Shown piece by piece: positions 1-56,976 of a stretch of 64,000 nucleotides of DNA. The position numbers were made by a program, and so were the translations under genes. This stretch comes from Patescibacteria group bacterium (GTDB taxonomy: Bacteria; Patescibacteriota; Minisyncoccia; Phycocordibacterales; JACZSL01): NCBI GenBank assembly GCA_022574205.1, contig JACZSL010000002.1, forward strand, positions 11,965-75,964, in the 5' to 3' direction. The notes under the pieces were generated by a model. The model worked only from the letters and a program-made list of their open reading frames with translations, did not search any database and was not told where the DNA came from. Each line of letters starts with the position of its first letter. Positions within the stretch are counted from its first letter, which is position 1.

Positions 1-3000
1 TTTCAATTCTTTATTAGCTGAAAATGCAACATGTCCATAGTCACTTGTTGCGAAATTTTGTTTCTTACGAAGACTTTGAATAAAACGAGTGACTTCGCGT
101 ACTGTTCCTTCTTCTATTAATTCAGGGGATAGGTGAGTGTTTAGTCCTACTTTATCTCCAAGTGATTTTTTAAACACAATCTCTTTTATATTTACTTCGC
201 TCAAAATAAGAGATAGGAGCTCTTCTTCTTTCTCTAGAGTTTTTTCTCCAATGAAAAGTGTCTGCAGTGGTTGCCGTACACGGGTTCCCGCTAGTTCACG
301 TGCTTCAAGACTTGCAGATACAACATTTCGAACATGTGTCATTTTTTCCAAAAGTTTTTTGTCTATCCTGCCCGCAATCGGCCAGCTTTCAAGATGAACG
401 CTTTCTTTTTCTTCTCCTTTGGATACGCCAAGATATATTATCTCTGCAATAAACGGCATAAACGGAGCAATGAGTTTTGACAACTCTATTAATACGAACC
501 GTGTTGTGGCAAGTGCATATTGCTTGTCTTCTTCATCATCACCCTTGAAGCGGTCGCGGGAACGACGGACATACCATGTTGAAAAGTCTGTGACAAATTC
601 CCTAATGGGACGAGACGCCTTGATCGTATTGAATCCTTCAAGGTTATTTGTTACTTCGTTATTAAGTTCTGCCAGCCGTGAGAGGATCCATTTATCAAGT
701 ACGTTCTTGCTATTATACGGCTTAACAGAGGCGTTATATTGGTCCTTATAGAGTCCGTAGAATTTAAAGATGTTGAAGAGAATTGTGACCAAACGATTTT
801 TAACTTCTTTAACATCATTGTCAGTAAACCGCATGTCTTCTGCTTGCATGACAACACTTCGCATCAAATAGTAGCGAAGTGCGTCAGAACCAAATTCGTT
901 TATTAACTCCATTGGGTCCGTGAAATTATTTTTTGATTTTGCTATTTTGCTGCCGTCCTCGGCCAAAATATTTCCTGTTGTAATAACATTTTTAAATGCT
1001 ATGTCACCAAAAAGTGCTGTTCCCAGTACGTGCAGATAATAAAACCATGTTCTGGTTTGTCCTATGTATTCCGCTATAAAGTCTCCGGGGCTTCTCTTTT
1101 CAAAAACCTTTTTGTTTTCAAATGGGTAATGATATTCTGCAAATGGCACTGACCCACTATCAACCCAACCGTCTAACACTTCTGGCACGCGTTCAAGTTC
1201 CTCTCCACCCTTACTAACAAGTTTTATGTTATCTATATACGGACGATGGAGATCGAGTTCAAAATTTTCGTTATGCGGTAGCGGAACAAAATCACATGAC
1301 TTAAATTTGCTTGTGTTTATATAATCTTCTTCATAACCGCGAAGATTTGCTACTTCTTTTTTAGTCGTAGCTCCTTTTGCAATAGCGTCAATCATCCACA
1401 CTCCGTATTCATGTGTAACAATCAAAATATTTTTATTAGTGTACTTCGCGTCAATTTCATAAAGAAACTCCGCTATACGTTTCTTCATGTCTAGGATATT
1501 CTCTCCATCTTTTGGTCGCTTAACCATCTTCTCTTCAATTGAAGAAAAGAAATCTCTGTACTCTTGGATTGGTCTTCCGTTATAAACTCCTGATTGTATT
1601 TCACGAATGCGTTCTTCTGTGATCAGCTTATTTTTCGGTAGCCCAAGCGTCTCTCTTACAATCTCGGCTGTTTCTTGTGTGCGAAAAAGCGGAGACGCAA
1701 AGATAAGATCTATCTTTTTCTTTGATAGTTTTCTGGCAGAGATCGATACATTTTTTCTGCCAAGCTCAGTTAGGTGTGAAGGTACAGAATTATCCGCGCT
1801 AATAATATTATTAACATTACTATCTGCCCCTCCATGTCGCATTATCGTGTACGTATTTAGGGATGACTTAATGTGACTCTTAAGTTCAGCGAGCGAACCT
1901 ATTACCACAATATCACCTCCTTTGGACTTCCAAATCGGAAGAGGTGAAGCCCAGTAACGGTTTCTAGAGATCGTCCAATCTGGCGCGCTCTTTAGATTGT
2001 GTAGAAATCTACCGTTCTTTAAATGCCCCGGGAACCAATTTATCTTTTTGTTATTTTTTATCAGTTTTCTCTTAATTTTCTGAATGTTTATAAACCAAGA
2101 AGACAATGCATTATATAAGAGAGCGGTTCCACACCGGTGACAGTGCGGATACGAGTGAGTGTAGTTGTCGCGACTAAACATAAGTCCCCGCTTTTCTAAA
2201 TCATCCTTTACCTTCTTTTCTGCCTTTTTAAAATATTCGCCGCGAATAAGTTTCGGAGCGAGATCGTTAAAGTGTCCATTTGGGTTTAAGAGTTGTACTT
2301 GTGGTAGATTGATTTTGAAGCCGAGGTCGTAGTCATCTTCTCCGTACATTACAGCTGTGTGCACTATCCCGGTGCCCTCGTCTGTCGTAACAAAGTCTGC
2401 TTCCGTAACATAGTGAGATTTCTTCTTTGTATCTTTTATCGCTAATACTTCAAAAAGCGGTTCGTATTCAATTCCAAGCAACTCTTTCCCTTTTATTTCT
2501 TTAACTTTTGTGTATTCTCCCGCTAAACCAGTTGCTAATATTTTTGTCGCTAATATTACATGCTCATCTCCTTTTGCGACAACGCCATAAACTATGTCCC
2601 TTCCAACCGCAAGCGCAACATTACCGGGAAGCGTCCATGGTGTTGTTGTCCAAGCAAGTAAAAATGTATTCTTTGGAAGATTATGCTTCTTCGGGTTCTT
2701 AACTTTAAACTTTACTGTAACGGCTTCCTCTGTAATGTCTTTGTAACTTCTATCCTGCGCAATCTCCGCTTTTGCCAGGGGTGTCTCGCAATGTGGACAA
2801 TACAAAAGCACCTTGCGTCCTTCGTACAACAACTTCTTGTCGTAGATTTGTTTTAATCCCCACCATACACTTTCGATAAACGAATTGTCCATTGTTTTGT
2901 ATGAATCATCAAAGTGAACCCAGCGCCCAATTCGATCAATGTATTTTTTCCATTGTTGCTCACAACGAAGTACGGCGTCGCGGCACGTTTGATTAAACTT

Positions 3001-3342
3001 CTCTACGCCTATTTCTTCAATTTCTTTTTTAGTTTTGAGACCGAGTTCCCCCTCGACCATGTTTTCGATTGGGAGACCGTGACAATCCCAACCCCACCTT
3101 CGACGCACATGGTACCCGCGCATGGTCTTGTATCGTGGAATAACGTCTTTAATAATTGAGCTTAAAAGGTTTCCGGCGTGCGGGAGACCGGTAGCAAACG
3201 GAGGGCCGTCGTAGAAGACAAATTCCCCTTTTGGGGCCCTTTTTTCAAGGCTTTTTTCGAAAATTTGGTTTTTTTGCCAAAAAGCTAGAATCTCTTCCTC
3301 TCGTTTCGCCGTTTCACTTATTTTACGCTTACTTTCCAGCAT
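1..3342 (-). CDS. ileS: Isoleucyl-tRNA synthetase (eukaryote-like type), 3'-partial at the window edge, with a ~200-aa histidine-phosphatase (PGAM-family) domain inserted
   Basis: Manual minus-strand translation from ATG at 3342: ...PPFATGLPHAGN (HIGH-region variant)... TTPWTLPGN and HTAVMYGEDDYDLG (CP1 editing)... DWTISRNRYWASPLPIW... [RHGGADSN... SPLFRTQETA... IVTHEYG]... DLHRPYID... VLDGWVDSGS... KIAKS. No minus-strand ORF in the supplied track terminates inside 1-3342, consistent with one continuous frame running off the window. Confidence 0.85.
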   Translation of the reverse strand, partial: MLESKRKISETAKREEEILAFWQKNQIFEKSLEKRAPKGEFVFYDGPPFATGLPHAGNLLSSIIKDVIPRYKTMRGYHVRRRWGWDCHGLPIENMVEGELGLKTKKEIEEIGVEKFNQTCRDAVLRCEQQWKKYIDRIGRWVHFDDSYKTMDNSFIESVWWGLKQIYDKKLLYEGRKVLLYCPHCETPLAKAEIAQDRSYKDITEEAVTVKFKVKNPKKHNLPKNTFLLAWTTTPWTLPGNVALAVGRDIVYGVVAKGDEHVILATKILATGLAGEYTKVKEIKGKELLGIEYEPLFEVLAIKDTKKKSHYVTEADFVTTDEGTGIVHTAVMYGEDDYDLGFKINLPQVQLLNPNGHFNDLAPKLIRGEYFKKAEKKVKDDLEKRGLMFSRDNYTHSYPHCHRCGTALLYNALSSWFINIQKIKRKLIKNNKKINWFPGHLKNGRFLHNLKSAPDWTISRNRYWASPLPIWKSKGGDIVVIGSLAELKSHIKSSLNTYTIMRHGGADSNVNNIISADNSVPSHLTELGRKNVSISARKLSKKKIDLIFASPLFRTQETAEIVRETLGLPKNKLITEERIREIQSGVYNGRPIQEYRDFFSSIEEKMVKRPKDGENILDMKKRIAEFLYEIDAKYTNKNILIVTHEYGVWMIDAIAKGATTKKEVANLRGYEEDYINTSKFKSCDFVPLPHNENFELDLHRPYIDNIKLVSKGGEELERVPEVLDGWVDSGSVPFAEYHYPFENKKVFEKRSPGDFIAEYIGQTRTWFYYLHVLGTALFGDIAFKNVITTGNILAEDGSKIAKSKNNFTDPMELINEFGSDALRYYLMRSVVMQAEDMRFTDNDVKEVKNRLVTILFNIFKFYGLYKDQYNASVKPYNSKNVLDKWILSRLAELNNEVTNNLEGFNTIKASRPIREFVTDFSTWYVRRSRDRFKGDDEEDKQYALATTRFVLIELSKLIAPFMPFIAEIIYLGVSKGEEKESVHLESWPIAGRIDKKLLEKMTHVRNVVSASLEARELAGTRVRQPLQTLFIGEKTLEKEEELLSLILSEVNIKEIVFKKSLGDKVGLNTHLSPELIEEGTVREVTRFIQSLRKKQNFATSDYGHVAFSANKELK

Positions 3343-3407
3343 ATAGAAGCTAATACTAGCACCATTACAATCTTGTGTAAAAATCGAAAGTAGGTCAAAG
3401 TGAAAGA

Positions 3408-4022
3408 GTGAAAGAGTGTGTTTTAAAACATTTTGAGAAAGTAGACAAAAAACTTTTCGAGGCAGTAAGTCCTGAAATGAAAAGGGTGACTCTTGATAAT
3501 GCCAAAAAAACACCCAATGAATATTTTATATCTCTCTGCAGAAGTATCGTCGGCCAACAACTTTCAAGAAAAGCCGCGCGAACTATTTATCTTCGGTTCA
3601 AAGCACTCTTTCCGAAAAACACGATTTCTCCTAAAAAATTACTCAAGTTTACAGAACACGACCTTCGTGGAGTCGGTATGTCATACGGAAAAGCTCGAGC
3701 CTTACGCGACTTAGCAGATAAAATATTAGAGAAGAAAATATCTTTTGCGTGCATTCATGAATATGACAACGAAAAAATTGAGGACATGCTTTTACAAATC
3801 CACGGGGTAGGTCCGTGGACAGTTGAGATGTTTATGATGTTTTCGCTTGGACGCGAAGACATATTTTCAACAAAAGACTTGGGTCTTCAAAAAGGTGTTC
3901 GGAAGATCTACAATCTCAAATCAAAACCAGACGAAAAGAAAATGGAGAAGATCAGCAAAAAATGGTCCCCTTATCAAACCTACGCCGCTCTTATTCTTTG
4001 GAATTCTGTAGATAATCAATAA
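3408..4022 (+). CDS. alkA: DNA-3-methyladenine glycosylase II / HhH-GPD base-excision glycosylase
   Basis: HhH-GPD motif ...LLQIHGVGPWTVEMFMMFSLGREDIFSTKDLGLQKG... Confidence 0.7.
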   Translation: MKECVLKHFEKVDKKLFEAVSPEMKRVTLDNAKKTPNEYFISLCRSIVGQQLSRKAARTIYLRFKALFPKNTISPKKLLKFTEHDLRGVGMSYGKARALRDLADKILEKKISFACIHEYDNEKIEDMLLQIHGVGPWTVEMFMMFSLGREDIFSTKDLGLQKGVRKIYNLKSKPDEKKMEKISKKWSPYQTYAALILWNSVDNQ

Positions 4023-4040
4023 AAAACAAAAAGCGCCCGT

Positions 4041-4295
4041 CTAAGCAACGGACGCACTTTTTGTCTTCGGGGCTTTTGGCATCTTAGTATGATAAACTCT
4101 GATGCTTTGGTCATCTCGAGCGCCCACTGATCCGACTGCCCGGTCGATTTCTTCTTCTCTTTCTGCAACAAATATTGCTCCATGGGGTTCGCCTGGAATG
4201 ACGAATGCCCATGGCTTCTGCACTATTCCGCAGGCAATTAGAATACTTTCTTCAGGACTCACCGTAACACTATTACGCTTAGGTGAAATATACAT
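4041..4295 (-). CDS. hypothetical small protein
   Basis: 84-aa ORF with protein-like composition, convergent with alkA; no recognisable family. Confidence 0.25.
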   Translation of the reverse strand: MYISPKRNSVTVSPEESILIACGIVQKPWAFVIPGEPHGAIFVAEREEEIDRAVGSVGARDDQSIRVYHTKMPKAPKTKSASVA

Positions 4296-4489
4296 ATTTT
4301 TCTCCCAAATAAAAGTTACATTGCGGTGTGACTCCTATCTTAATTATGCTCTTTAAAACAAGAGTTAAAAGAGTGCGGGTGTGGACAACTCAAAAATCTG
4401 TGGTTTTACCACAGATTTCATAAGATACCTAGCTTTGTAAAACGAAAACACCCAAGGGGTTTTCATTTACCCCTTGAGCGATTACTTTT

Positions 4490-4656
4490 TACTTGAGTGC
4501 TTCTCTAATCTGTTGCTTTGTCACCAAACTGCGATGACTCATCTGACCCCATATGAAAGAAACTCTCCGCGCTAAACTTTCGTTTGGCGACATACTCCGT
4601 CCTGCTGATTTGCGCAACGTTTCAAGCAATTCTGACGAAGTCTTAAGTTCATTCAT
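4490..4656 (-). CDS. hypothetical small protein (~55 aa), below the ORF-track length cutoff
   Basis: Manual translation MNELKTSSELLETLRKSAGRSMSPNESLARRVSFIWGQMSHRSLVTKQQIREALK. Two hairpins followed by T-runs lie downstream on the minus strand at about 4385-4410 and 4455-4485. Confidence 0.25.
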
Positions 4657-4712
4657 GCTAATTTACTCCTTGCAATCCACCTTGAGCGTAGCAAACGCGC
4701 ATGTGTTGTCAA

Positions 4713-6374
4713 TTACATATGCTCTGGTGTTTTAATACCTAAAAGCCACAGGCCGTTTTGCATTGTGATTTGGAATGCACGAGTCAGCGCAAGGCCGTAT
4801 TTCTCGTTTTTTCCACCAATGACCGGCACATTTGCATACCAACTGTTAAATGCGCTTGCTAACTCGGTTAAATACACCGTCACATGATGCGGCTCATACT
4901 CGACTTTTGCTCGCTTGGCTATTTCAGGAAAACGATAGAGTATCCGTTCAAGCTCTGTCACAACTTTCGGCGCATCTTTAACATCCCCTTCTCCTCCCTT
5001 AGAGAGGAGTGCGAGTGAGCGCGTATGCGCGTACTGAAGATACGGCCCAGAGTCGCCCTCAAAAGAAAGTGCTTTATCAAAATCAAATACAATGTCACGA
5101 CCCGTTGCTTGTTTAAGTATTGAAAACTTAAGCCCTCCTACTGAAATACTTTCCGCAACTGCTTCTTTATCTTTAATATCTCTGTCTTTCATTTTTTCCT
5201 CCACAGCCTTCTCCACCTCTGCCAAAAGCGATTCCGCAGAAATTACGTCTCCTTTTCGCGACGACATCTTGCCGCTTGGTAGCCTCATCATGCCATGTGT
5301 TATGTGCAACATCTTTTTCTCAAGCTTTGGATGCACTTCCCCAAATGCAGCACGCATTACTTTAAAGTATTCTTTTTGTTCTTCTGCAGTAATTGTGATT
5401 GAAAGATCAAGAGAATAATCATTAAATTTCTGCGTCGCAAGACCTAAATCTTTTGTCTCATATGTTGGAAGTCCCTCTGAAGTAATAAAAACCCTTGTAT
5501 GTAAGCCATGTTTTTCGCCGCGATACACAATCGCTCCATCGCTCTCCTCAAATACTTTTTTATTTTCTTCTACAAACTTTTTACCAACACCAACCATTTC
5601 ACTTTCAAAGTAATATTTGTCGAACTTTGTCCCAAGTTTTTTATAAATCTCCTCAAAATGTTCTAGGGAAACCTCGCGCCCACGTTTATACAGTTCGTCT
5701 ACAACAACATCTCCCTTGGAGTAAACTTTTTTATTAATCTCATCTATTGTTTCTTTTGCTTTTACATTATTCTCATATGCCTTAGCACCATATGCATACG
5801 CTTCTCCAAGATATTTTACTGTAACATTTTTCTCTTTCAGCTCCGTCATTCCATAAATCGCTTTTGCAACATGAAGTCCCACATCTCCTTGATAGTTTGC
5901 ACGAATCGTTTCCGCTCCGGAATTTTCTATAAGACGCGCGATGGATTCACCAATGGCGTTTGCCATTAAGTGACCAATGTGCATTTCTTTAAACGGATTG
6001 GGATCAGTGTATTCGACCATAACTTTCTTTCCCTTAAGTGTTTCGTTCTTACCCCATTTTTCCTTTTGATTTATGATCATTTCTGTTTGTGCTGTAAAAA
6101 ACTCTCGAGACAAATGGAAGTTAATAAATCCCGGCCCGGCGACTTCTATTTTTTCAATCTCATCTGTTTTTTTCTTATTTAAAATTTCAACAATCCTTTC
6201 CGCCAATTCTTTAGGGTTCTTGCCCTCATGTTTAGCGCACATCATAGCTATATTCGTCGAAAAATCCCCATTACTGAGCTCATTTGGGTGCTCGAGCAAA
6301 ACCTCCTCGGTTTTTATACCAAGCTTCTTAAGTGCTTTTTGTATTTGCTCCACAATTAACGTATATATGTTCAT
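4713..6374 (-). CDS. argS: Arginyl-tRNA synthetase
   Basis: Class I aaRS with HIGH-type motif (EMHIGHLMANAIGE) and ArgRS N-terminal and anticodon-binding architecture. Confidence 0.9.
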   Translation of the reverse strand: MNIYTLIVEQIQKALKKLGIKTEEVLLEHPNELSNGDFSTNIAMMCAKHEGKNPKELAERIVEILNKKKTDEIEKIEVAGPGFINFHLSREFFTAQTEMIINQKEKWGKNETLKGKKVMVEYTDPNPFKEMHIGHLMANAIGESIARLIENSGAETIRANYQGDVGLHVAKAIYGMTELKEKNVTVKYLGEAYAYGAKAYENNVKAKETIDEINKKVYSKGDVVVDELYKRGREVSLEHFEEIYKKLGTKFDKYYFESEMVGVGKKFVEENKKVFEESDGAIVYRGEKHGLHTRVFITSEGLPTYETKDLGLATQKFNDYSLDLSITITAEEQKEYFKVMRAAFGEVHPKLEKKMLHITHGMMRLPSGKMSSRKGDVISAESLLAEVEKAVEEKMKDRDIKDKEAVAESISVGGLKFSILKQATGRDIVFDFDKALSFEGDSGPYLQYAHTRSLALLSKGGEGDVKDAPKVVTELERILYRFPEIAKRAKVEYEPHHVTVYLTELASAFNSWYANVPVIGGKNEKYGLALTRAFQITMQNGLWLLGIKTPEHM

Positions 6375-21420: not shown

Positions 21421-21431
21421 AAGGACTCATG

Positions 21432-21513
21432 TGCCCAGGGGGGGACTTGAACCCCCAAGCCGTGAAGCATACGCCCCTCAAGCGTACGAGTTTACCAATT
21501 TCTCCACCTGGGC
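21432..21513 (-). tRNA. tRNA-Leu (GAG), long variable arm
   Basis: Reverse complement GCCCAGGTGGAGAAATTGGTAAAC..TACGCTTGAGGGGCGTA..GGTTCAAGTCCCCCCCTGGGCA. Confidence 0.8.
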
Positions 21514-22188
21514 TTACAGTGTTTTATTTACGACACTTAATGCTTTTTCTATTTTTCTGCGTTTGCGAGATAAGCATATCACGTTTTTGTCGTAATACAT
21601 TTTTTTTAGGATCTTTAGTGATTCACTTTTTGCAAACCTTAATTGGTGTACGTTACCAAATTTGGAGCACACAATATGCCCTTTCACACTGATTAATTTC
21701 CCGAGCTCCTCTTTTATCCAATCTATGTGTTTTCTACTAGCAGAAGCAAAAACAACGTAAAACATGTAGCTTTTTTTCCAACGAGGATCCCAATACGAAT
21801 AAAAACACCCATCCCCATCATGATGACCTCTAAGAAAATCAAAGAAGTATGTTAGTGGAATTTCTATCTTGCCTATAATTTTTGTCTTGGCTGGACTAAA
21901 GCCAGCACCCAAAAGAAATTTGTACAACTTGACACTACCAAACTGAATTCTTGTGGTTCTTTTGCCAGTATGGGTAGAAATTTTGGTTCCAATTTTAACA
22001 TTAATGTTAAGACAACGCATAAAATTTAAAAGTTGTTCTTTGTCCTTGGAGGTTAAGTCAAAATGTCTTCCATCTATCGAGAGACTTCCATCAGTAGCTA
22101 AAAGCCCCATTGCATATGCAAAATTTGGACTCCACTTGGTACTTATTTCACTATTTCTCTTCACATTAGTCGTGCAATAATCATACAA
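21514..22188 (-). CDS. LAGLIDADG homing endonuclease (two-motif, single chain); its stop directly abuts the tRNA-Leu 5' end
   Basis: LLATDGSLSIDG and FLRGHHDGDGCF LAGLIDADG motifs. Confidence 0.75.
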   Translation of the reverse strand: MYDYCTTNVKRNSEISTKWSPNFAYAMGLLATDGSLSIDGRHFDLTSKDKEQLLNFMRCLNINVKIGTKISTHTGKRTTRIQFGSVKLYKFLLGAGFSPAKTKIIGKIEIPLTYFFDFLRGHHDGDGCFYSYWDPRWKKSYMFYVVFASASRKHIDWIKEELGKLISVKGHIVCSKFGNVHQLRFAKSESLKILKKMYYDKNVICLSRKRRKIEKALSVVNKTL

Positions 22189-28887: not shown

Positions 28888-29574
28888 CTAAGTTTGAAGT
28901 TGTGCTACTTTGGTATAATTACACACGCAAGGTGCCAGGTGACACGTATGGCAACCTTTGTAGAACATCTCTTCAAGCTCTCTTCCAATGTCGATGCTTA
29001 ATGAATTTGCGACACCGAAAAAACAAGACACATAGTCTGCAAGCTCCTCTTTAATTTCATCGAGCTGTTTTTGTTGATGCTGTCCTAGATAATTAAGAAT
29101 GGCTTCACTAACTTCGCCCATCTCTTCTGCTAAGTGTACGCCGGCATCAGCTGCTGTTCGTTGATCACTTTGGTAAATCTCGTCAAACATCTTTTGTATT
29201 TCTGGTATGCTGTTTGGTTTTTGCGATTTTCTAGATACTACCTTGTGTCGTTTTGTTACCTTGCTCTCTTTACATGAACATGGTTTTTTACCGCAATATG
29301 AGCATAGAGCAGGAAACCGTTTCCACACCACCTCTTCAAGATTAATATGAAGTCTGTTTACAGTAGCCATTTGCCATGCAAAAGCTATCATTAGATTCAG
29401 TTTTGTCTTTTTTAAATCTTCTTTTCGTATTCCCTTAAGAGCTCGCATAGTGAACCGTTGCTGGTGTGTTACAAGATCCCACACAGAATATAGACGGTCA
29501 TCAGGAAGCGTATACACTTCAGCAATGAGCTCTTGAAATTTACTTAAATTTTGATTTCTACGAAAGCTTGCCAT
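28888..29574 (-). CDS. MazG-like nucleotide pyrophosphohydrolase with two Cys-rich (zinc-ribbon-like) motifs
   Basis: ...LAEEMGEVSEAILNY... EELADYVSCFFGVANSL (EExxE-type); CSYCGKKPCSC and CHTCHLAPCVCN. Start moved to MASFRRNQ (29574) because the longer ORF overlaps tRNA-Ser. Confidence 0.5.
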   Translation of the reverse strand: MASFRRNQNLSKFQELIAEVYTLPDDRLYSVWDLVTHQQRFTMRALKGIRKEDLKKTKLNLMIAFAWQMATVNRLHINLEEVVWKRFPALCSYCGKKPCSCKESKVTKRHKVVSRKSQKPNSIPEIQKMFDEIYQSDQRTAADAGVHLAEEMGEVSEAILNYLGQHQQKQLDEIKEELADYVSCFFGVANSLSIDIGRELEEMFYKGCHTCHLAPCVCNYTKVAQLQT

Positions 29575-29592
29575 GACGATAATAAAACGAAT

Positions 29593-29680
29593 TTGGCGGT
29601 GAGGGTGGGATTCGAACCCACGGTACCTTTCGGTACGCTTGTTTTCAAGACAAGTCCGTTCGACCACTCCGGCACCTCAC
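29593..29680 (-). tRNA. tRNA-Ser (TGA), long variable arm, CCA encoded
   Basis: Reverse complement GGTGAGGTGCCGGAGTGGTCGAACGGACTTGTCTTGAAAACAAGCGTACCGAAAGGTACCGTGGGTTCGAATCCCACCCTCACCGCCA. Confidence 0.85.
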
Positions 29681-29784
29681 CCTTTAACTGTGCTGTAATA
29701 CTACACAGTGCATGTTGTAAACGCAACATATTTTGATTATTTTGTGGTATCGGAATATCTGTGGAGATATCGAACTGATAAGCT

Positions 29785-35207: not shown

Positions 35208-36029
35208 TTACTGATAAGAAGCGATTGCTCTTTCTAGTATCTCCCTTTTTTCAAGATTCTGTTTCCATATACTATTCGAGCGGTTTCCGTTTATGCACAC
35301 GCCGGGAGAGAAATTGATTTCTTTTTGGAATTTTTGTAGATTCTCTTTTCCAACAATAACAACCTCATTTGGCTTTTGAATAGACGAGCCAATATCAAAA
35401 TCGAGAAGGAGTATTTTAATAGTTTCCAAAACGGAGGTGTCTTTTTGGTAGCCGCGCACTCTGCGTGATCTATTATTAAAATTCATACATCCTTCATCGT
35501 CAAAAAATGCTCTTAAAAATTCGCGCTTAAGATGTTTTGGAAATGTATTTACGTTTGAAAAAAGCTCCTGGGATTTCTTTTTTATATGAGCGGCAAGTGC
35601 AACATTAAAATAACTAATTCGGAGTACTCCTGTAGACTTATTACAATAACGAGTGGGTTCAAAGTCGTATATTTCTTTCATAATAGTCTCAACTCTTTTA
35701 ATCAAACTCGTGCTTCTATTATTATAAATACAGCCATGGGTGTTTATTTCTCCATCAAACAAAAAATGAGAAATGAGAAGTACCATGTTCGTATTCCATG
35801 TTGAGAATTCTTTAAAACTTCTTGAACTTTTTCCTTTCCGGTTTTCAGACATCCTAATAATCCTTGTGCGTGACGCGTCCTGGATCATTCTCAATTTTTG
35901 AGTGCTTAGAGGAATGTCGCGTATGTGAAAATAGACTGATGTTTTCGGTCGGCCTGTGATTTTAACAATCTCAGGTAGGGTGTGATCCTGACTTCGTAAG
36001 ACAACGCATTGCTGTTTAAAATTATTCAT
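35208..36029 (-). CDS. LAGLIDADG homing endonuclease (two-motif); its start codon lies 2 nt after the tRNA-Lys 3' end
   Basis: LISHFLFDGEINTHGC and FLRAFFDDEGCMNF motifs. Confidence 0.7.
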   Translation of the reverse strand: MNNFKQQCVVLRSQDHTLPEIVKITGRPKTSVYFHIRDIPLSTQKLRMIQDASRTRIIRMSENRKGKSSRSFKEFSTWNTNMVLLISHFLFDGEINTHGCIYNNRSTSLIKRVETIMKEIYDFEPTRYCNKSTGVLRISYFNVALAAHIKKKSQELFSNVNTFPKHLKREFLRAFFDDEGCMNFNNRSRRVRGYQKDTSVLETIKILLLDFDIGSSIQKPNEVVIVGKENLQKFQKEINFSPGVCINGNRSNSIWKQNLEKREILERAIASYQ

Positions 36030-36030
36030 G

Positions 36031-36103
36031 TCCGCCCAGCAGGACTCGAACCTGCGACCTTGAAGTTAAAAGCTTCCTGCTCTACCAGCTGAGCTATGGG
36101 CGG
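36031..36103 (-). tRNA. tRNA-Lys (TTT)
   Basis: Reverse complement CCGCCCATAGCTCAGCTGGTAGAGCAGGAAGCTTTTAACTTCAAGGTCGCAGGTTCGAGTCCTGCTGGGCGGA; anticodon loop CTTTTAA; unusual C1:G72. Confidence 0.75.
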
Positions 36104-48858: not shown

Positions 48859-49962
48859 TTACTTATTCATTGGCATAACAAGATAAAGGTATGATGGGTC
48901 GCTCACACCTTCCATAACCATTGGTTTCCCAAGGCCACTAAAAGACAGGGAAACACTATCTGATGGGATAATTTGTAGTGCGTCAGTAATATATCGGTGA
49001 TTAAAGTTAATATCTAAATCTTCTCCATCAACAGCTGCTTGGAGTTGTTCTGTTGTCTCTCCTACATCTTGATTACTTGAAGTTAGGGTACATTTTCTTT
49101 GTTTTGATGAAATATGAAAACAAACCTGATTAAACTTATCAGAGAAAATATTTATTTTCTTTAAACTATTAATAAGGTCTTGTTTTAGTGTAATAATTTT
49201 TGTTGTGACTTTTTTAGGAATAATTTGGTGGTAATCTGGGTAAATACCGTCAATTAGCCTTGATGTTATGTATATGTTGTCAGATGAGAAAGATATTTGA
49301 TTTTTAGTAAAAGTTACTATAACTTCTCCAATATTTGAGTGTTCTAGTGCTTTTATTATTTCTGGTATGTTTTTAATAGGTATAATAAGTGGGTTAAAAT
49401 TTGGAACATTTTTATTTATTATAACTTTCTCAGATAGACGGAATGAGTCTGTTGCTGTAAATGTTATTTTTTTGTTTTGTATAGATATATATACACTTGC
49501 AAGTTCTGGTTTAATTGATAAGTTGGATGAACTAAACCATACTGAATTTAGGCCATTAAGAAAATCCTTAATGTCTATTGTAAATGAATTATTACTTTTA
49601 ACTTTAGGTAGTAATGGAAAATCTTCATGTGGTAGTGATTTTATAAGTGTTGAACTTGTGTGTGTTATTATTGAAAGGTTGTCATTTTTACTTAATAATT
49701 TAATTGATACACCATTATATATAGAATTTATAACGTTATAAAAAACTGAACCAGAAACTGCCATTATACCATCTTCTATTATTTTTGCTGGAATATTAAC
49801 TTCAACACCTAAATCAAGATTTGTTGCTTTTAGTTTTAAACTTGATCCTTTTGCCTCTATTAAAATACATCCAAGAACAGGAAGATTAAGATTTTTTCCA
49901 ACAGCCCTTTCAACAATATAAATATTATCAACGAGATTTTCTTTTAAACATTCAACCTTCAT
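48859..49962 (-). CDS. dnaN: DNA polymerase III beta sliding clamp
   Basis: MKVECLKENLVDNIYIVERAVGKNLNLPVLGCILIEA... three-domain clamp. Confidence 0.9.
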   Translation of the reverse strand: MKVECLKENLVDNIYIVERAVGKNLNLPVLGCILIEAKGSSLKLKATNLDLGVEVNIPAKIIEDGIMAVSGSVFYNVINSIYNGVSIKLLSKNDNLSIITHTSSTLIKSLPHEDFPLLPKVKSNNSFTIDIKDFLNGLNSVWFSSSNLSIKPELASVYISIQNKKITFTATDSFRLSEKVIINKNVPNFNPLIIPIKNIPEIIKALEHSNIGEVIVTFTKNQISFSSDNIYITSRLIDGIYPDYHQIIPKKVTTKIITLKQDLINSLKKINIFSDKFNQVCFHISSKQRKCTLTSSNQDVGETTEQLQAAVDGEDLDINFNHRYITDALQIIPSDSVSLSFSGLGKPMVMEGVSDPSYLYLVMPMNK

Positions 49963-50179
49963 ATTCTATATATTATTTATTTTTACTATTAACACTGTGT
50001 ATATGTATAAAACTTAATAAACCCTTATAATAAGCTCTTTTCTAAAACATCTACATAAACAACATGTGATTAACTTATAATAATATGTGGACTATTTTAC
50101 ATTAAATAAACTAAAATACATTTTTACACCAACTTATTAACAAATCATCCACATAATAAAATACGTTTTCCACAAATTG
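49963..50179. promoter_or_regulatory. Candidate oriC segment / DnaA-box cluster in the AT-rich dnaA-dnaN intergenic region
   Basis: tcatccaca (50145-50153) and ttttccaca (50166-50174) are each 8/9 to TTATCCACA; tgtggacta (50087-50095); region about 80% AT. Confidence 0.4.
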
Positions 50180-51538
50180 TTATTTTAGAATCATACGAAT
50201 TTGATTTATTTCCTGTTCAAGAACACTATCAACTTTTAAATTTTTTCTAATTTTTTCACATGAATGTATAACTGTTGTGTGATCTCTACCACCAAGTTTT
50301 TGTCCAATACTCGGATAAGAAATACCAAAATCTTCCCGTAAAATATACATAATAAGCTGACGAGGCTTAACTATTTCTTTCCGTCGAGTTTTCTCATAAA
50401 TATTTTGCTCAGTAATATCATAAAATTCCGCAATTTTCCTCACAACTTCCTTTGCAGATATAAGTTTTTTTGTTCTTGTATTATTTTTTATTAAGCTTTC
50501 AATTTCAGGAAGTGTTAGGGTTGTATCTTGAAGTTGAGATTGACATATAATAGTGTTAAGTGCTCCCTCAAGATCACGAATATTCCCTTGTATTGTTGAA
50601 GCAAGGTAGTCAATAATTTTATCTGAAAGTAATAAATTATTATGTAGTGCTTTAGATTTTAAAATAGCAACACGCGAGTCGTGATCTGGGGCTGGTATAT
50701 CAACAATCATACCAGCGCCAAAACGGCTCTTCAGACGACTTTCAAGATCTGGGATATAGTTTGGGTGCTTATCTGATGTTAATATAATCTGTTTATTATT
50801 ATCATAAAGAGCATTAAATAGATGAAAAAGCTCCTCCTGAGTCTTTTCCTTCTTAGAAAGAAATTGAATATCGTCCATAATAAGAACATCATACTGACGA
50901 TACTTCTCTTTAAACACATTAACTTTAGCCTCCTGAACAGCGTTCACATAATCAACAGTAAATTTCTCACTCGTTAAATAGAATACTTTTCTAGCAGGAT
51001 TTATTTTCTTTAATTGATTACCAACAGCTTGTGCAAGGTGTGTTTTTCCATGACCTGTTGGACTATAAAGAAAAAGAGGATTATATGCAATTCCAGGTTT
51101 TTTAATAACAGCCTGGCTTGCTGCATGAGCCAACTCATTAAATGAACCAACAACAAAATTTTCAAATGTATATCGTGGATTTAAATTATCATTTTTATTG
51201 ATATAAAAATCCTTAAGTGGTAACTCATATGTTGGTGTTGGTTTTTTAGCCACACCACCAACCAACTCCTTTATCACACTATTATCACGATTTTTTACAA
51301 TATTATATTCAAGTCCACGAACCCCGTCAGAAAAACCCCTAAGTGTTTTAAGAATAAATCTATGATATTTTTGCACCATCCAATCCTTAACAAACTGGTT
51401 CGGCACACCAAGGAAAATAACCCCACTCTCCTGTTTAATAATGTACGTATCCTTAAACCATGTGCTGAAATTTGCTCGTGATATATTAAGTTCAATATCA
51501 ACAAGTGTATTTTCCCATAATTGTTTATTACCAAGCAT
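50180..51538 (-). CDS. dnaA: Chromosomal replication initiator DnaA
   Basis: LFLYSPTGHGKTHLAQAVGN (Walker A); C-terminal HTH ...GGRDHTTVIHSCEKI... Confidence 0.95.
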   Translation of the reverse strand: MLGNKQLWENTLVDIELNISRANFSTWFKDTYIIKQESGVIFLGVPNQFVKDWMVQKYHRFILKTLRGFSDGVRGLEYNIVKNRDNSVIKELVGGVAKKPTPTYELPLKDFYINKNDNLNPRYTFENFVVGSFNELAHAASQAVIKKPGIAYNPLFLYSPTGHGKTHLAQAVGNQLKKINPARKVFYLTSEKFTVDYVNAVQEAKVNVFKEKYRQYDVLIMDDIQFLSKKEKTQEELFHLFNALYDNNKQIILTSDKHPNYIPDLESRLKSRFGAGMIVDIPAPDHDSRVAILKSKALHNNLLLSDKIIDYLASTIQGNIRDLEGALNTIICQSQLQDTTLTLPEIESLIKNNTRTKKLISAKEVVRKIAEFYDITEQNIYEKTRRKEIVKPRQLIMYILREDFGISYPSIGQKLGGRDHTTVIHSCEKIRKNLKVDSVLEQEINQIRMILK

Positions 51539-51723
51539 GTGGTGAAATGTAATGCTAATAAGCCGAATAAGATATGTATGATTATCAAATTATACTCTTC
51601 TCGTGGAAAAGTAAATCTTGAAAAACTTGAATAAGTATGTTAATAAAATGTGCATAAGACATAATTGTTACTGTACTAAATAAAAGTAGTCAGGCTTTAA
51701 TTATTCTGTTATAATGTTAAATA
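51539..51723. promoter_or_regulatory. Divergent dnaA/rpmH promoter region with DnaA-box-like sites (second oriC candidate)
   Basis: tgtgcataa (51649-51657) is 8/9 to TGTGGATAA; cgtggaaaa; AT-rich. Confidence 0.35.
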
Positions 51724-51858
51724 ATGTCTATTACATACAAACCAAAGAGGCGAAAAAGGGCTAAAACTCACGGTTTTTTAAGCCGCAAAAAGACACCAGG
51801 TGGACGTAAAGTCCTTAAAAGACGAGCACGAAAAGGAAGAACGCACTTGTCTGTGTAG
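51724..51858 (+). CDS. rpmH: Ribosomal protein L34 (44 aa; below the ORF-track cutoff)
   Basis: Manual translation [44 protein letters not shown]. Confidence 0.9.
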
Positions 51859-51890
51859 AATTATGCCTGTGTATAACACACTCTAGAATT

Positions 51891-52220
51891 GTGAATAAAA
51901 GAAAACCGGTAACTAGAAAAATTTTCGACCGCATTTTAAAAACCGGAAAAACATACCATCAACCACTATTTAGTTTTCACACACTACACACACTTGAAAA
52001 TGTATACAGGATTGTGTGTGTTGTACCAAAGAGCACGGAAAAGTCTGCTGTTGTTAGAAACAAGTTACGACGTCGTTGTTACTATGCGATTTATAAACTA
52101 CTCAACAATAATAAGTATTTTTTAGCAATCCTATTTATTAAATCAGGCGCGAAACGCCTTCCATATAAATTATTTGAGGAAAAGATAGCCGTTCTTCTCA
52201 AAAGATCCGGCATACTGTAA
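51891..52220 (+). CDS. rnpA: RNase P protein component
   Basis: Basic protein ...VVRNKLRRRCYYAIYKLL...; canonical rpmH-rnpA order. Confidence 0.85.
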   Translation: MNKRKPVTRKIFDRILKTGKTYHQPLFSFHTLHTLENVYRIVCVVPKSTEKSAVVRNKLRRRCYYAIYKLLNNNKYFLAILFIKSGAKRLPYKLFEEKIAVLLKRSGIL

Positions 52221-52331
52221 ACACTTACCACCGCATCAATAATTACAACACCACATTAACTGCACGTAAAGAACATTTGTAAAATACATCAAAACTTGAA
52301 CCTTAATACAAACTACGCTAGGATTATGTGA

Positions 52332-53063
52332 ATGATATCAGGATTATTTCACACATTCTTCTACAACCCTATATACAACGGGCTTGTTTTTTTGATAGAC
52401 ATCGTTCCACTTGCTGATGTTGGTGTAGCAATTATTCTTATTACTGTTTTAGTTAAGCTTCTCCTCTTCCCTATTTCACAAAAGGCTGTGCGCACACAGT
52501 TCATCATGAGGGGGTTACAGCCACAACTCGAAAAGATTAAAGAAAAGTATGCAAAGGACAAGCAGGCGCAAGCGCGCAAAACAATGGACCTTTATAAGGA
52601 GAAAGGAATTAATCCATTTTCTGGAATTCTTCTTATTTTCATCCAAATCCCGATTATTTTGGCACTCTACTGGGTATTTTTCCGTGGCGGACTACCAGAA
52701 ATAGATCTAAGCATTCTATATTCTTTTATAAACGAACCAAGTAAAATTAATATGAATTTTCTCGGGTTGATTCCTATGGATGGCCGCAGTATCGTTCTTG
52801 CGTTTCTTGCAGGACTGTCACAATATTTCCAGATTAAACTTTCATTGCCAGACCTCAAAAAAAGAGACGACAAAGCAAGCCTTAAGGATGATTTTGCACG
52901 GAGCTTCCAACTTCAAATGCGTTACATGCTCCCGCTATTTATATTCGGTTTTTCATATTTCGTTTCAGCAGCAGTTGCATTATATTGGTTTACAAGTAAT
53001 ATATTTGCCATTGGGCAAGAGATTTTCTTAAGAGGAAGGCTGGCTAAAGAAAAGAAAGACTAA
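52332..53063 (+). CDS. yidC: Membrane protein insertase YidC/Oxa1 (short form)
   Basis: ...LYKEKGINPFSGILLIFIQIPIILALYWVF... Confidence 0.9.
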   Translation: MISGLFHTFFYNPIYNGLVFLIDIVPLADVGVAIILITVLVKLLLFPISQKAVRTQFIMRGLQPQLEKIKEKYAKDKQAQARKTMDLYKEKGINPFSGILLIFIQIPIILALYWVFFRGGLPEIDLSILYSFINEPSKINMNFLGLIPMDGRSIVLAFLAGLSQYFQIKLSLPDLKKRDDKASLKDDFARSFQLQMRYMLPLFIFGFSYFVSAAVALYWFTSNIFAIGQEIFLRGRLAKEKKD

Positions 53064-53080
53064 CTAAAAACAAAATAAAT

Positions 53081-53210
53081 CCCGATAGTAATCCCTGCCT
53101 GCCGGCAGGCAGGATGGACACTAAGACAATATATTATGAGAAAGTCGATTATCAAAAAAACTTAATCTTGTGGCAAGGATAATTTCAGTTCGTGTCCTAT
53201 TACTATCGGG
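53081..53210 (+). repeat. ~130-bp repeated leader/MITE-like element, copy 2, with perfect 12-bp terminal inverted repeats and a perfect 20-bp GC palindrome; ends exactly at the jag start codon
   Basis: cccgatagtaat ... attactatcggg|ATG; cctgcctgccggcaggcagg at 53094-53113; ~80% identical to the 21294-21420 copy in the same orientation relative to the downstream gene. Confidence 0.65.
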
Positions 53211-53690
53211 ATGAAAAACGAGGAAATAAAAAATACCATCGAAACGTTTTTGGAAAAAATGACAATACCATTTGACGATGTTGAGTGTATAGAAACCAAC
53301 CTCCACAGTACATTTTTAGTACATTCAAGCGACGCCGGTATCTTAATAGGAGTAAAGGGAGAAACGCTAGAGGCATTAGGTTATCTTATCAGGCGAGTAG
53401 TCGAGAAAAACAACACCGAAGACGATAGAAGTGTTTTTATTGTTGATGTAAACAACTACCAAACAAAAAAAATCCAAGAGCTTATCGACAGTGCGCAGGC
53501 ATCAGCACGCAGGGTAAAATTATTTAAACAAAGCGTCGAGCTTTCCCCCATGACCAGCTACGAACGCATGCTAATACATTCACTTTTCACAGACGACAAA
53601 GAAATTACCACCACCTCCTACGGCGACGGAAAATTTCGTCGCATTGTACTCCAACTTCAGGGAGTGGAAAACTCTGAAGAAGTAGTCTAA
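53211..53690 (+). CDS. Jag/KhpB-like R3H RNA-binding protein
   Basis: KH-like ...GILIGVKGETLEALGYLIRRVV...; R3H ...SYERMLIHSLF...; canonical position after yidC. Confidence 0.8.
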   Translation: MKNEEIKNTIETFLEKMTIPFDDVECIETNLHSTFLVHSSDAGILIGVKGETLEALGYLIRRVVEKNNTEDDRSVFIVDVNNYQTKKIQELIDSAQASARRVKLFKQSVELSPMTSYERMLIHSLFTDDKEITTTSYGDGKFRRIVLQLQGVENSEEVV

Positions 53691-55007: not shown

Positions 55008-55919
55008 TTAGCCGCCAGCACCAGGACGATAGCACGGGGTGGCCGACACAAACAACGGTCTCGAGGACGCGTCTCTCCGTGCTTGTTCACAAAGCAGAGA
55101 ATCGTTAACAGGTACGGGACACTGCTGTTGTGTTAGACGTCTGTCGTCAGACCCCACCGACGTAGTGATATCATAACAAAATTCCCTACCTATTCCTCTA
55201 GAGCCGTCGGCTGTCGAGAAGCACCCTTCTTCTATACCATAAGAGATAAAAACTTGTCTTGGACGGGCCTTATACTCTTCTTCCCCAGCAAGGCATTGTT
55301 CCAAGGTAGTCCATATGGTTTCTTCACCAGAAAAAAATCCAAAACTACCACATTCTATATCAGCAAATCCACCAGCATCGTCGCCAACAAAACAAAAACC
55401 TTGATCTATTATTACTCTGTTGGCATATCCTGTCAGCGCCGCGGCTTCCTCAGCACGACTACGATCATCAAGTTCTATTCCAGAAACTACACCACCAACC
55501 TTGTCTTGAAGTGTGCCAAAAAAGTCGAAACTAAGAATCTTTGGGTTAATTGTTTGCAGAACCAGAACGGAAAGAAGAACAATTAGGAGTCCCCCAAACA
55601 CACCAGTCATACATTTTTTCGCCGCCTCTTTTGAGCTTATTGCTTCGCTCATCATATACTGAAAACCACAAATCATTAACTTGATTACTGCAAGAACTGC
55701 AATTATAGAAATGAAAAGAACAAAAATATTGTTAAAATATTGCACCAATCCGGAAGGACCCCCAGTATTCACAGAACTCCCAACACCAGGAAGCGGGGAA
55801 ATAGGCGTATACGATTGCGCAAACACAGTGTCTACAAACAACAACATTAGAATACAACACAACGCAAACGTTAATATGTAAGTGGTTTGTGCGGACTTGA
55901 ATTTACTTGGAAAAAACAT
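55008..55919 (-). CDS. VirB2/TrbC-like pilin candidate with a ~170-aa Cys-rich C-terminal domain
   Basis: Signal peptide (…VFA|QS), two hydrophobic helices separated by a short charged loop (LVQYFNNIFVLFISIIAVLAVIKLMICG / MTGVFGGLLIVLLSVLVL), then a domain with ≥9 Cys. Confidence 0.35.
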   Translation of the reverse strand: MFFPSKFKSAQTTYILTFALCCILMLLFVDTVFAQSYTPISPLPGVGSSVNTGGPSGLVQYFNNIFVLFISIIAVLAVIKLMICGFQYMMSEAISSKEAAKKCMTGVFGGLLIVLLSVLVLQTINPKILSFDFFGTLQDKVGGVVSGIELDDRSRAEEAAALTGYANRVIIDQGFCFVGDDAGGFADIECGSFGFFSGEETIWTTLEQCLAGEEEYKARPRQVFISYGIEEGCFSTADGSRGIGREFCYDITTSVGSDDRRLTQQQCPVPVNDSLLCEQARRDASSRPLFVSATPCYRPGAGG

Positions 55920-56965
55920 TATTCAAATAAAACATTAAACGAGGTCTCCGCTTCTTGCAAAACTTTAAACGGAAGGTTGTTGTTTATTACTTTTAATAAT
56001 ACCTCTGCCTGACCCGTTTCTACACCCTCACGACGAAACGTAATTTCGTTTCCCTGTTCTTCTCTGGGGATATCAATATCTTTTCTGTCTACACGCCATC
56101 TATAATTTAATAGCCTCCCAAAAACATCCTCAAGGGAAAAGAAATAAGGTTCTGCGCGAAAAACAACTTCGTCTTCTGTAAAATTATACAAACCCTTTAT
56201 TACAGAACCGTACACCACACCCTCAAGAGGCCGCTTTTCATAGATTAGAATCTCTTGTGCGTATACCGGGACAACAGCAGTACTCTGCGCGCGCACAGAG
56301 CCATTTGGTGACGAAACGGAAACAGACACAATAAGCGGCACTTCACGAAGAATCTCGTTTTGGAGCACAATACTTTGCCTGCCAACTCCGGACGCTTTCC
56401 CCAAAACAACACCGCTCTGACTCCACGTATAAACAAGCTTTTTTGGATCTATCTTCTTTCCGGCACTATCTGCAATTTCAGGCATAGCAACAAACGTTAT
56501 TAGACCCGCGGACGGAGCAAGAGCTTTCCCTCTATAAAAAGGGGGTGTATACGAGAATGCTTCCCATACAAGATTTATTTCACTAGGAATTACCTCAACC
56601 TCACGAACAAAAAGTTCTCCTTTATCCGTTTCGATCACAACACTCACCCTACTGGAACTTCCAAGTCCTCGTGTGGTGAAACGAGCACGACTCTCCCCAA
56701 CACCAACAAGCCGCACAGTTCCGTTTAGTGTCCACGTTATATTAGAAAGTCCCAGATCAATCGTTTCACTTTCCAAAGTAACAACAACCATTTCGTATAA
56801 CCCCGGGGTTTTTGGTGAGAGAGTTATGGATATTGAGCCAGTTGCCGCTTGCGCATGCGTCTCTAAGGCAAGCATGAGCACAAAAAGTAAGCTAAAAACC
56901 ACAATAACCGCCACACAATAGACTCGAATTGGATTATATGTATTAATCGGGAGAATATGTTTCAT
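55919..56965 (-). CDS. hypothetical secreted protein
   Basis: N-terminal signal/TM; beta-rich; start overlaps the upstream stop (operon packing). Confidence 0.4.
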   Translation of the reverse strand: MKHILPINTYNPIRVYCVAVIVVFSLLFVLMLALETHAQAATGSISITLSPKTPGLYEMVVVTLESETIDLGLSNITWTLNGTVRLVGVGESRARFTTRGLGSSSRVSVVIETDKGELFVREVEVIPSEINLVWEAFSYTPPFYRGKALAPSAGLITFVAMPEIADSAGKKIDPKKLVYTWSQSGVVLGKASGVGRQSIVLQNEILREVPLIVSVSVSSPNGSVRAQSTAVVPVYAQEILIYEKRPLEGVVYGSVIKGLYNFTEDEVVFRAEPYFFSLEDVFGRLLNYRWRVDRKDIDIPREEQGNEITFRREGVETGQAEVLLKVINNNLPFKVLQEAETSFNVLFE

Positions 56966-56976
56966 AGAATAATATA

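Follow-up and report, generated by a model that had tools for sequence, protein, structure and literature searches.

The 64,000-nucleotide stretch of DNA analyzed here (the window; a Patescibacteria group bacterium, GenBank assembly GCA_022574205.1, contig JACZSL010000002.1, positions 11,965 to 75,964 of the forward strand) begins within a gene for an isoleucyl-tRNA synthetase (IleRS), in whose catalytic core a second enzyme, a branch-1 histidine phosphatase (HP), is nested. The fusion is real, in frame, and clade-wide, and assemblies from NCBI, JGI, ENA, and Logan independently yielded the same architecture, which recurs across hundreds of clusters. On balance, we favor the reading that the polypeptide is bifunctional, with an autonomous phosphatase that would be functionally coupled to aminoacylation. 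A preliminary reading of the window made from its letters (the sequence-only reading) had described a eukaryote-type IleRS with an inserted histidine-phosphatase domain. Both parts of that description were borne out by profile searches, in which TIGR00392 scored above its cut-off and PF00300 was placed between the two halves of tRNA-synt_1.

The gene was present as a minus-strand open reading frame (ORF) at 1-3342, a single uninterrupted frame of 1114 codons that starts at 3342 and runs off the window start. It encodes the first 1114 of 1157 amino acids, the C-terminal 43 lying beyond the window, and its translation was 100% identical to the public 1157-aa NCBI protein P0001, which is annotated as 'class I tRNA ligase family protein [Patescibacteria group bacterium]' and nothing more specific. 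The NCBIfam model for ileS, TIGR00392, matched with 821.5 bits against a cut-off of 621.4, despite being split by the insert. In the Pfam search, tRNA-synt_1 was found in two stretches with His_Phos_1 between them, followed by Anticodon_1 and by DUF5915 (PF19302), which is the type-2 C-terminal domain. Comparison with the PDB using phmmer gave E-values of 1e-185 to 1e-218 for 1ILE, 8C8U, and yeast IleRS, and of 1e-92 for the IleRS1 of S. aureus. Foldseek placed type-2 IleRS structures closest (E=1e-71 to 1e-84) and IleRS1 enzymes much farther away. Scores for models of special IleRS forms were below their cut-offs: 308.8 against 1999 for NF040702, and 706 and 709 against 1900 for the MupA/MupB models NF000257 and NF000258. 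No second IleRS was found in the 64-kb window, and the ORF encodes a type-2 IleRS, presumably the housekeeping copy of this Parcubacteria-type Patescibacteria bacterium.

The N-terminal part of the synthetase (aa 1-492; 1867-3342, minus strand) was delimited by a Pfam tRNA-synt_1 stretch at 18-491 and by a break in the PDB alignments at about residue 491. It comprises the first Rossmann half, the CP core with its Cys knuckle, the CP1 editing domain, CP2, and the first half of CP3. The motifs WTTTPWT and GTGIVH of the CP1 editing domain are present, and the editing motifs WTTTPWT (231-237), G323/G325, V327-H328, and D337 were invariant in 118 sequences. The C-terminal part, from aa 696 (1-1257, minus strand), was assigned from Pfam, PDB alignments, and motif positions, and it contains the rest of CP3 (LDLHRPYID), the second Rossmann half (DGWVDSG), the KMSKS loop, the anticodon-binding domain, and DUF5915. 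The HP occupies aa 493-695 (1258-1866, minus strand), as determined by Pfam, alignment, and the structure model. The sequence-only reading had put the insert at 1270-1900, which was essentially right and has been refined to nt 1258-1866. His_Phos_1 (PF00300) was matched at aa 500-651 (nt 1390-1845) with E=1.4e-26 and 93.8 bits against a cut-off of 21.7; the domain check that had been proposed thus found tRNA-synt_1 split and His_Phos_1 inside it.

The insert of about 200 aa stands in place of a CP3 loop of 8-30 residues in uninserted relatives, in which about that many residues separate '...IGS.eELk' from 'DLHRPYID'; the sequence-only reading had estimated about 25. Directly ahead of the insertion point lie the CP2-CP3 linker and a strand, RNRYWASPLPIW (1930-1965, minus strand), and directly behind it lies the LDLHRPYID segment (1228-1257, minus strand). 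Both flanks, as well as the hallmarks RHG, SPLFRTQETA, and IVTHEYG, were found where that reading had placed them. Every alignment with a PDB IleRS breaks at about query residue 491, and query residue 488 pairs with yeast residue 489. CP3 has been delimited as 459-526 in the yeast enzyme and as 473-534 in that of C. albicans (PMC7955072, PMC7191050), and these published boundaries, together with the alignment break, place the HP at the CP3 tip. The topology of CP3 varies among IleRS enzymes, a zinc motif being located there in T. thermophilus (PMC7191050), and the yeast CP2-CP3 linker, 453-ARDWNVSRNRYWG-465, forms part of the wall of the pocket that receives the tRNA 3' end and reveromycin (PMC7955072). 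By these alignments, the HP is predicted to sit at the tip of a variable subdomain whose base lies at the tRNA 3'-end pocket. An intein or other mobile element was considered as the identity of the insert and rejected, as no such motifs were present and a complete enzyme fold was found instead.

The predicted active site of the HP consists of R502-H503-G504 (1831-1839), the RHG motif that provides the phosphate-binding Arg and the nucleophilic His; R554 (1681-1683), the second catalytic Arg, within the SPLxRxxET motif (SPLFRTQETA); E581 (1600-1602), the putative proton donor; and H644 (1411-1413), the second catalytic His, within IVTHEYG. All are encoded on the minus strand, and the last three were assigned by motif and conservation. 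Across 257 nested copies, R502, H503, R554, and H644 were conserved in 100% and G504 in 99%, although the identity of the HP domain is just 35-50%. Position 581 was Glu in 87% of these copies, and in the nearest 120 homologues it was Glu in 117 and Asp in 3. Purifying selection acts on the synthetase motifs as well as on the active site of the phosphatase, and the HP, which keeps a complete catalytic set, is apparently active.

The AlphaFold model of the full-length protein had a pLDDT of 91.5 and a pTM of 0.84, with insert blocks at 84-97, and the model of the insert alone had a pLDDT of 94.7 and a pTM of 0.92. A Foldseek search with the insert model returned PspA, PhoE, and Rv2419c as the closest structures (TM 0.70-0.78, 18-24% identity, probability 1.00). 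Further neighbors by sequence or fold were the S. pombe phosphoglycerate mutase (PGM), the riboflavin-pathway HFP, CobC, and TIGAR, all of which are small-substrate phosphatases or mutases; no protein phosphatase was present among the top 50 structural matches. The comparison with PGAM and SixA that the sequence-only reading had suggested was therefore positive for the small phosphatase/mutase folds but not for SixA, for which the insert scored below the cut-off. No NCBIfam equivalog cut-off was reached by the insert: the scores were 63 against 350 for PspA (NF045917), 61.8 against 162.9 for CobC (TIGR03162), 79.2 against 225 for the archaeal dPGM (NF038349), 42.6 against 261 for GpmB (NF002901), and 32.8 against 74.5 for SixA (TIGR00249). 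Free-standing relatives of the HP likewise remained below every NCBIfam equivalog cut-off, and the substrate is thus not readable from homology. PADLOC gave no match for the insert or for the free copy P0175, and one weak match for the free copy P0152 (Aga_Cas4-like_Nuc, E=4.6e-4). The sole match in PHROGs was a phage family of unknown function, and a search of a word-indexed protein database with the insert alone returned just 3 fragments.

The nested HP was found in at least 257 distinct cluster representatives of Patescibacteria IleRS, mostly from Parcubacteria/Paceibacteria and some from Peregrinibacteria. PF00300 was present in all 120 best IleRS homologues (55-73% identical), and beyond these about 140 further cluster representatives carried the nested domain. 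In one later search, about 115 IleRS clusters beyond the 120 were recovered, under the names Nealsonbacteria, Yonathbacteria, Azambacteria, Wolfebacteria, Pacebacteria, and Minisyncoccia. When the insert alone was used as the query, the best 150 library representatives were mostly IleRS proteins or fragments of them, which answers in the affirmative the earlier question of whether related IleRS genes carry the insert. A scan of GTDB species genomes covered at least 80 loci, and the absences given here refer to that sample. The nested form was found at 11 of these loci, all within the candidate phyla radiation (CPR), in Paceibacteria, Yanofskybacteria, Spechtbacterales, Peregrinibacteria, and one Peribacteria locus with two tandem copies. 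It was not found in Saccharibacteria, Gottesmanbacteria, Magasanikiibacteriota, or other Peribacteria, nor in any bacterium outside the CPR or any archaeon. To judge from these sequences, the HP-bearing form is the normal IleRS in a large part of Patescibacteria.

In a neighbor-joining tree of IleRS, calculated without support values, nested forms and those with an adjacent HP gene interleaved; the corresponding tree of the HP was star-like and unresolved. At least two different C-terminal junctions were seen among nested IleRS, and the one in Peribacteria was unlike the others. Interleaving in this unsupported tree and the differing Peribacteria junction hint at more than one event of insertion into IleRS. 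At the C-terminal junction of the Peribacteria gene (L025:6001-9774), the segment PLPHN..ELDLHRPYID that is otherwise typical is missing, which points to an insertion of its own or to rearrangement at a later time. One aberrant protein was also noted: P0207 (1066 aa, from an 11.3-kb JGI contig) is IleRS-like with a nested HP, but it has a match to an IS200-type Y1 transposase in its CP1 region, and its KMSKS and anticodon-binding part is replaced by a GNAT acetyltransferase. The protein may represent a paralogue that is aberrant or has been repurposed, or else an assembly chimera.

The HP also exists as a separate gene. Free-standing proteins of about 190 aa were among the best matches of the insert, with 170-200 bits over nearly the whole insert HMM, and their conserved columns were identical to those of the nested copies (31 free compared with 257 nested). 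The RHG residues were present in 94-97% of the 31 free copies and R554 in 100%. All 7 free copies that were checked lie in a cluster with the arginyl-tRNA synthetase (ArgRS) gene, and an uninserted IleRS lies alongside in 6 of the 7, where the contig extends far enough. P0175 and P0152 stand directly after ArgRS and directly upstream of an uninserted IleRS. P0201 immediately precedes an uninserted IleRS, and ArgRS is found a few genes upstream of it (L013); P0155 has an uninserted IleRS directly downstream and ArgRS a few genes off. P0143 and P0177 follow ArgRS, with a convergent uninserted IleRS next door, and P0181 follows ArgRS at a contig end. The same arrangement of ArgRS, HP, and IleRS as in the 7 checked loci was found in L031 (Staskawiczbacteria), and the order ArgRS->HP->IleRS was seen in L002-5, L009, L013, and L031. 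Where the HP is nested, ArgRS lies directly upstream of the fused IleRS gene in 8 of the 11 GTDB loci, with no free HP nearby. The window conforms to this pattern, with the ArgRS gene, identified by Pfam, as the conserved upstream neighbor of IleRS (4713-6374, minus strand); no other HP gene was found in the 64 kb. Nested and free forms were mutually exclusive at every locus examined. Given the matching columns, the linkage to ArgRS and IleRS, and this mutual exclusion, free and nested HP are alternative states of one gene, and the nested domain is the ortholog of a free enzyme whose gene is linked with ArgRS and IleRS in the genome. The surrounding gene order SmpB-IF3-L35-L20-ArgRS is conserved too.

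Two side observations were made at these loci. In the window, a gene for an HhH-GPD base-excision glycosylase (3408-4022, plus strand) is located between ArgRS and IleRS, in the orientation opposite to theirs, and it occupies the slot that is held by the free HP gene in sister lineages. At locus L007, the uninserted IleRS gene (2682-5609, minus strand) contains a single in-frame TGA at the expected Trp of the C-W-R-C knuckle (PHC*RCHTPLIY), and the ArgRS and phosphatase genes there terminate in TAG and TAA. The TGA could be a sequencing error, the mark of a pseudogene, or a UGA codon that is read as Trp.

Fusions with other partners were found as well. Two ArgRS proteins, P0244 and P0280, carry the HP at the C-terminus, and P0244 is a single ORF in the same synteny. 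In a complete valyl-tRNA synthetase (ValRS), P0349, the HP lies inside the CP3 Cys knuckle directly after SRQIWFGHRIPVWY. A second ValRS, P0166, contains four HP copies, three at the CP3 knuckle site and one elsewhere. Two tandem copies were found in the IleRS proteins P0250, P0261, and L025. A fusion with Sua5 was a singleton on a 3.7-kb contig and was given little weight. P0264, which combines His_Phos with a 2OG-oxygenase, was discounted as a link to nucleic acids, as its context (LRR, weak Mito_carr match) is not CPR-like. The HP has thus been captured repeatedly by class Ia synthetases, with the captures by ValRS and ArgRS independent of that by IleRS.

Under the reading favored here, the IleRS portion would charge tRNA-Ile as usual, and the nested HP would work as an autonomous phosphomonoesterase through a phospho-His503 intermediate, with E581 as the proton donor. 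The HP would be more than a passenger, functionally coupled to class Ia aminoacylation, and its substrate would be a small nucleotide-type phosphomonoester that is made or required at the synthetase. Candidates are AMP and 2'- or 3'-phosphorylated adenosine, which would include A76 of the tRNA 3' end in phosphorylated form; both the nucleotide-type substrate and the possible phosphorylated tRNA end are guesses. Against the guess stands the finding that the nearest folds are metabolic small-molecule enzymes. Several results also weigh against the coupling as a whole. The HP exists free and at the far C-terminus of ArgRS, and its exact placement near the active site is thus not required. Inherited synteny could by itself account for both the fusion with ArgRS and the adjacency of the genes. 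Fusions with ArgRS, Sua5, and ValRS are rare, with 1-2 clusters each, and the insert reached none of the equivalog cut-offs listed above. The mean pI of the insert, which was used as a proxy for RNA binding, was 6.1, equal to that of the remaining protein and not basic, so that RNA binding is unsupported.

The strongest competitor is that the HP is a hitch-hiker, an ordinary metabolic phosphatase or mutase without any functional link to aminoacylation, whose gene stood beside ileS in an ancestral cluster and was fused into a surface loop that tolerates insertions. The source could have been a phosphoglycerate mutase of the short type, a phosphoserine phosphatase, or a phosphatase of a vitamin pathway, with genome streamlining as the driving force, and the two enzymes would do no more than share a polypeptide. 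The nearest neighbors of the HP (PspA, S. pombe PGM, PhoE, Rv2419c, riboflavin HFP, and CobC) are indeed metabolic enzymes, the free enzyme is present in sister lineages, and the insert pI is not basic. CP3 is structurally variable and evidently permissive (PMC7191050), and the adjacency to ArgRS may be inherited rather than selected, as the gene order from SmpB to ArgRS is itself conserved. Coupling is nevertheless preferred, because a nested insertion cannot be obtained by simple loss of a stop codon, because ValRS has gained the HP at the homologous CP3 site without any known adjacency to an HP gene, and because all partners in a CPR context (IleRS, ValRS, ArgRS, and Sua5) act on tRNA or make adenylates. 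The occurrence of nested IleRS at several places on the rough tree with at least two C-terminal junctions, and the tandem amplification to 2-4 copies within synthetases, also argue against a mere passenger. We consider the hitch-hiker explanation a serious but less probable one.

A narrower version of coupling is that class Ia synthetases carry the HP as an inbuilt phosphatase for the tRNA 3' end, which would strip a 2'- or 3'-phosphate or a pyrophosphate from A76. Class Ia synthetases acylate the 2'-OH of A76. Lesions at this nucleotide that are left by ribotoxins or by toxSAS-type tRNA pyrophosphokinases would be removed, and the synthetase would in this way repair and recharge its own tRNA. 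The origin of CP3 at the 3'-end pocket, the capture by IleRS, ValRS, and ArgRS, and the conserved active site are compatible with such a role. The neutral pI and the small-molecule phosphatase folds lend it no direct support, and we regard it as improbable in this specific form. If true, it would represent a new form of translation quality control or immunity in the CPR.

It is still less probable that the HP is a regulatory protein phosphatase that dephosphorylates the synthetase or a partner, for example by undoing HipA-type inhibitory phosphorylation of aminoacyl-tRNA synthetase (aaRS) active-site loops. The superfamily does include protein phosphatases (SixA, PGAM5, and Sts-1), and the fusion with three different synthetases would fit self-protection. 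The weak SixA match was under its cut-off, the top 50 structural matches were all small-substrate enzymes, and no kinase was seen in the conserved neighborhood. HipA-type targets include GltX, TrpS, and LysS; IleRS, ValRS, and ArgRS are not known to be among them. The sequence-only reading had offered an editing, regulatory, or moonlighting module as possible functions. Editing was rejected on chemical grounds and is unlikely because this fold cleaves phosphomonoesters and not aminoacyl esters, and what survives of that proposal is moonlighting or a coupled second enzyme.

The same reading had called the HIGH and KMSKS regions atypical, and altered signatures could be taken to mean that the gene encodes a specialized IleRS paralogue with weakened synthetase chemistry, such as a resistance copy or an SbzA-like aminoacyl-transferase, and not the housekeeping enzyme. 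The HIGH equivalent is H55-A-G-N58 (3169-3180, minus strand), in which the fourth His is replaced, and the KMSKS-equivalent loop is K799-I-A-K-S803 (934-948, minus strand), in which Ala takes the place of the KMSKS Ser; both were assigned by motif position and were read correctly. HAGN is no isolated defect of the window gene. In the nearest 120 homologues, HxGS was found in 108, HxGN in 7 (including the window gene), and HxGH in 4, so that the fourth position is Ser or Asn in 115 of 120; the clade shows no variation at the first His or at the Gly. K799, K802, and S803 are likewise invariant in the clade; just A801 is unique to the window gene, the residue being Ser in 119 of the 120. The fourth His is kept in all 64 uninserted IleRS of the GTDB sample, and its loss was considered as a companion of the insertion. 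This was rejected, as nested IleRS carry HxGH, GxHH, HxGS/N, or HxGL, with HxGH or GxHH in the remoter ones, and the variety of motifs among nested enzymes marks the loss as a subclade trait. HAGN thus appears to be part of a subclade-wide HxG(S/N) variant and gives no sign of decay. This variant lies outside the G/AXHH forms described for IleRS2 (PMC10485003), and it would widen the known tolerance of IleRS2 active sites.

IleRS-like paralogues with altered signatures do exist, as in SbzA, which has AMSKA (PMC12945691). The window gene exceeds the ileS equivalog cut-off, and the first His and Gly of HIGH, both Lys of KMSKS, the editing motifs, and the anticodon domain are conserved. Many nested IleRS have a canonical HxGH or the GxHH known to be active, and the ArgRS-IleRS context is a housekeeping one, with no second IleRS in the window; genomes of this kind are generally regarded as small. 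A specialized paralogue is therefore judged very unlikely. Non-catalytic appended domains are known from synthetases in general, and this precedent is the sole point in favor of a catalytically lost, structural or tRNA-binding HP; that reading and the one of an assembly artefact or pseudogene are effectively refuted by the invariant catalytic residues over 257 copies at 35-50% domain identity, the acidic to neutral pI, the intact frame, and the agreement of the NCBI, JGI, ENA, and Logan assemblies.

The whole synthetase body is shared with the structurally known type-2 enzymes (T. thermophilus 1ILE, P. megaterium IleRS2 8C8U/8C8V, and yeast 8WND). Where about 200 extra CP3 residues are found here, those enzymes show a short loop, or a zinc knuckle in the case of T. 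thermophilus, and their fourth HIGH His is Asn in the window gene and Ser in the subclade. The HP shares its fold, its size of about 200 aa, and the RHG...R...E...H signature with small branch-1 phosphatases, including PspA (4IJ5, a phosphoserine phosphatase), PhoE (1H2E/1EBB), Rv2419c (a glucosyl-3-phosphoglycerate phosphatase), CobC, and HFP (9MMH). Those enzymes are free-standing, whereas the HP is nested in a synthetase, with 18-24% identity. The curated family NF040702, IleRS with an N-acetyltransferase domain, is a precedent for an extra enzymatic domain, which is a GNAT there and a histidine phosphatase here. A further likeness is the bifunctional RNase H/acid phosphatase (PRK07238, M. 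tuberculosis Rv2228c type), in which a CobC/PhoE-like phosphatase is fused to a nucleic-acid enzyme. The insert matched its phosphatase half with 71.8 bits, far under the cut-off of 326; that fusion is end to end with another partner, whereas the HP is nested.

Class Ia core loops are known to accept nested modules (PMC7191050; bioRxiv 10.64898/2026.02.03.703510), and the CP3 zinc knuckle of T. thermophilus IleRS, the leucine-specific domain of LeuRS, and the INS subdomain of IleRS ARD2 are likewise nested in surface loops. The known modules are small, non-enzymatic, and structural or tRNA-contacting, whereas the HP amounts to an entire additional enzyme that brings an active site of its own. 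The E. coli CCA-adding enzyme has HD-domain phosphatase and 2',3'-cyclic phosphodiesterase activities. As a tRNA 3'-end enzyme with a built-in phosphohydrolase, it serves as an analogy for the tRNA-end hypothesis only: its HD fold and metal-dependent chemistry are unrelated to the HP, for which contact with tRNA is hypothetical. In open-access papers and preprints, no publication was found that links a synthetase with a histidine phosphatase or describes insertions in CPR IleRS, and the broad studies of IleRS evolution (PMC10485003; bioRxiv 10.64898/2026.02.03.703510) do not mention the fusion. The architecture had been thought undescribed, and this holds for the literature; the sequences themselves have been public and labeled by Pfam since the groundwater genomes of 2015. 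What is new is an undescribed synthetase with a nested enzyme; it is not a new category, as nested modules were already known.

The aaRS are among the best-studied enzymes, and their nested modules (editing domains, zinc knuckles, and tRNA binders) have all been connected with the cycle of aminoacylation. In the present case, the catalytic core of a synthetase houses another enzyme, apparently active and belonging to a different chemical class, and the series of free, fused, and nested forms provides an unusually clean 'Rosetta stone' argument for linking a phosphomonoesterase to class Ia synthetases. If the coupling is true, a previously unrecognized step of translation or of tRNA/nucleotide housekeeping would operate in minimal genomes, such as product clearance, tRNA-end repair, or regulation. 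If it is false, an enzyme of about 200 aa nested in CP3 is still compatible with a long-term intact IleRS gene, which is relevant for synthetase engineering.

Several other features of the window were recorded. Two ORFs with matches to LAGLIDADG_3 abut tRNA genes on the same strand: 21514-22188 (minus strand; E=7e-7) adjoins tRNA-Leu at 21431-21513 (minus strand), and 35208-36029 (minus strand; E=1.4e-10) adjoins tRNA-Lys at 36030-36103 (minus strand). From these matches and positions, both look like homing-endonuclease ORFs associated with tRNA genes. A MazG-like ORF (28888-29667, minus strand), as mechanically listed, overlaps tRNA-Ser (29594-29681, minus strand) by about 70 nt, and its true start is probably further downstream. 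Genes of the origin region were located within 48859-53690, comprising dnaN (48859-49962, minus strand), dnaA (50180-51538, minus strand), yidC (52332-53063, plus strand), and a KH/R3H Jag-like gene (53211-53690, plus strand). Downstream of them, at 55008-59401, lies a cluster with a TraG-like P-loop ATPase and T4SS-pilin-like genes.

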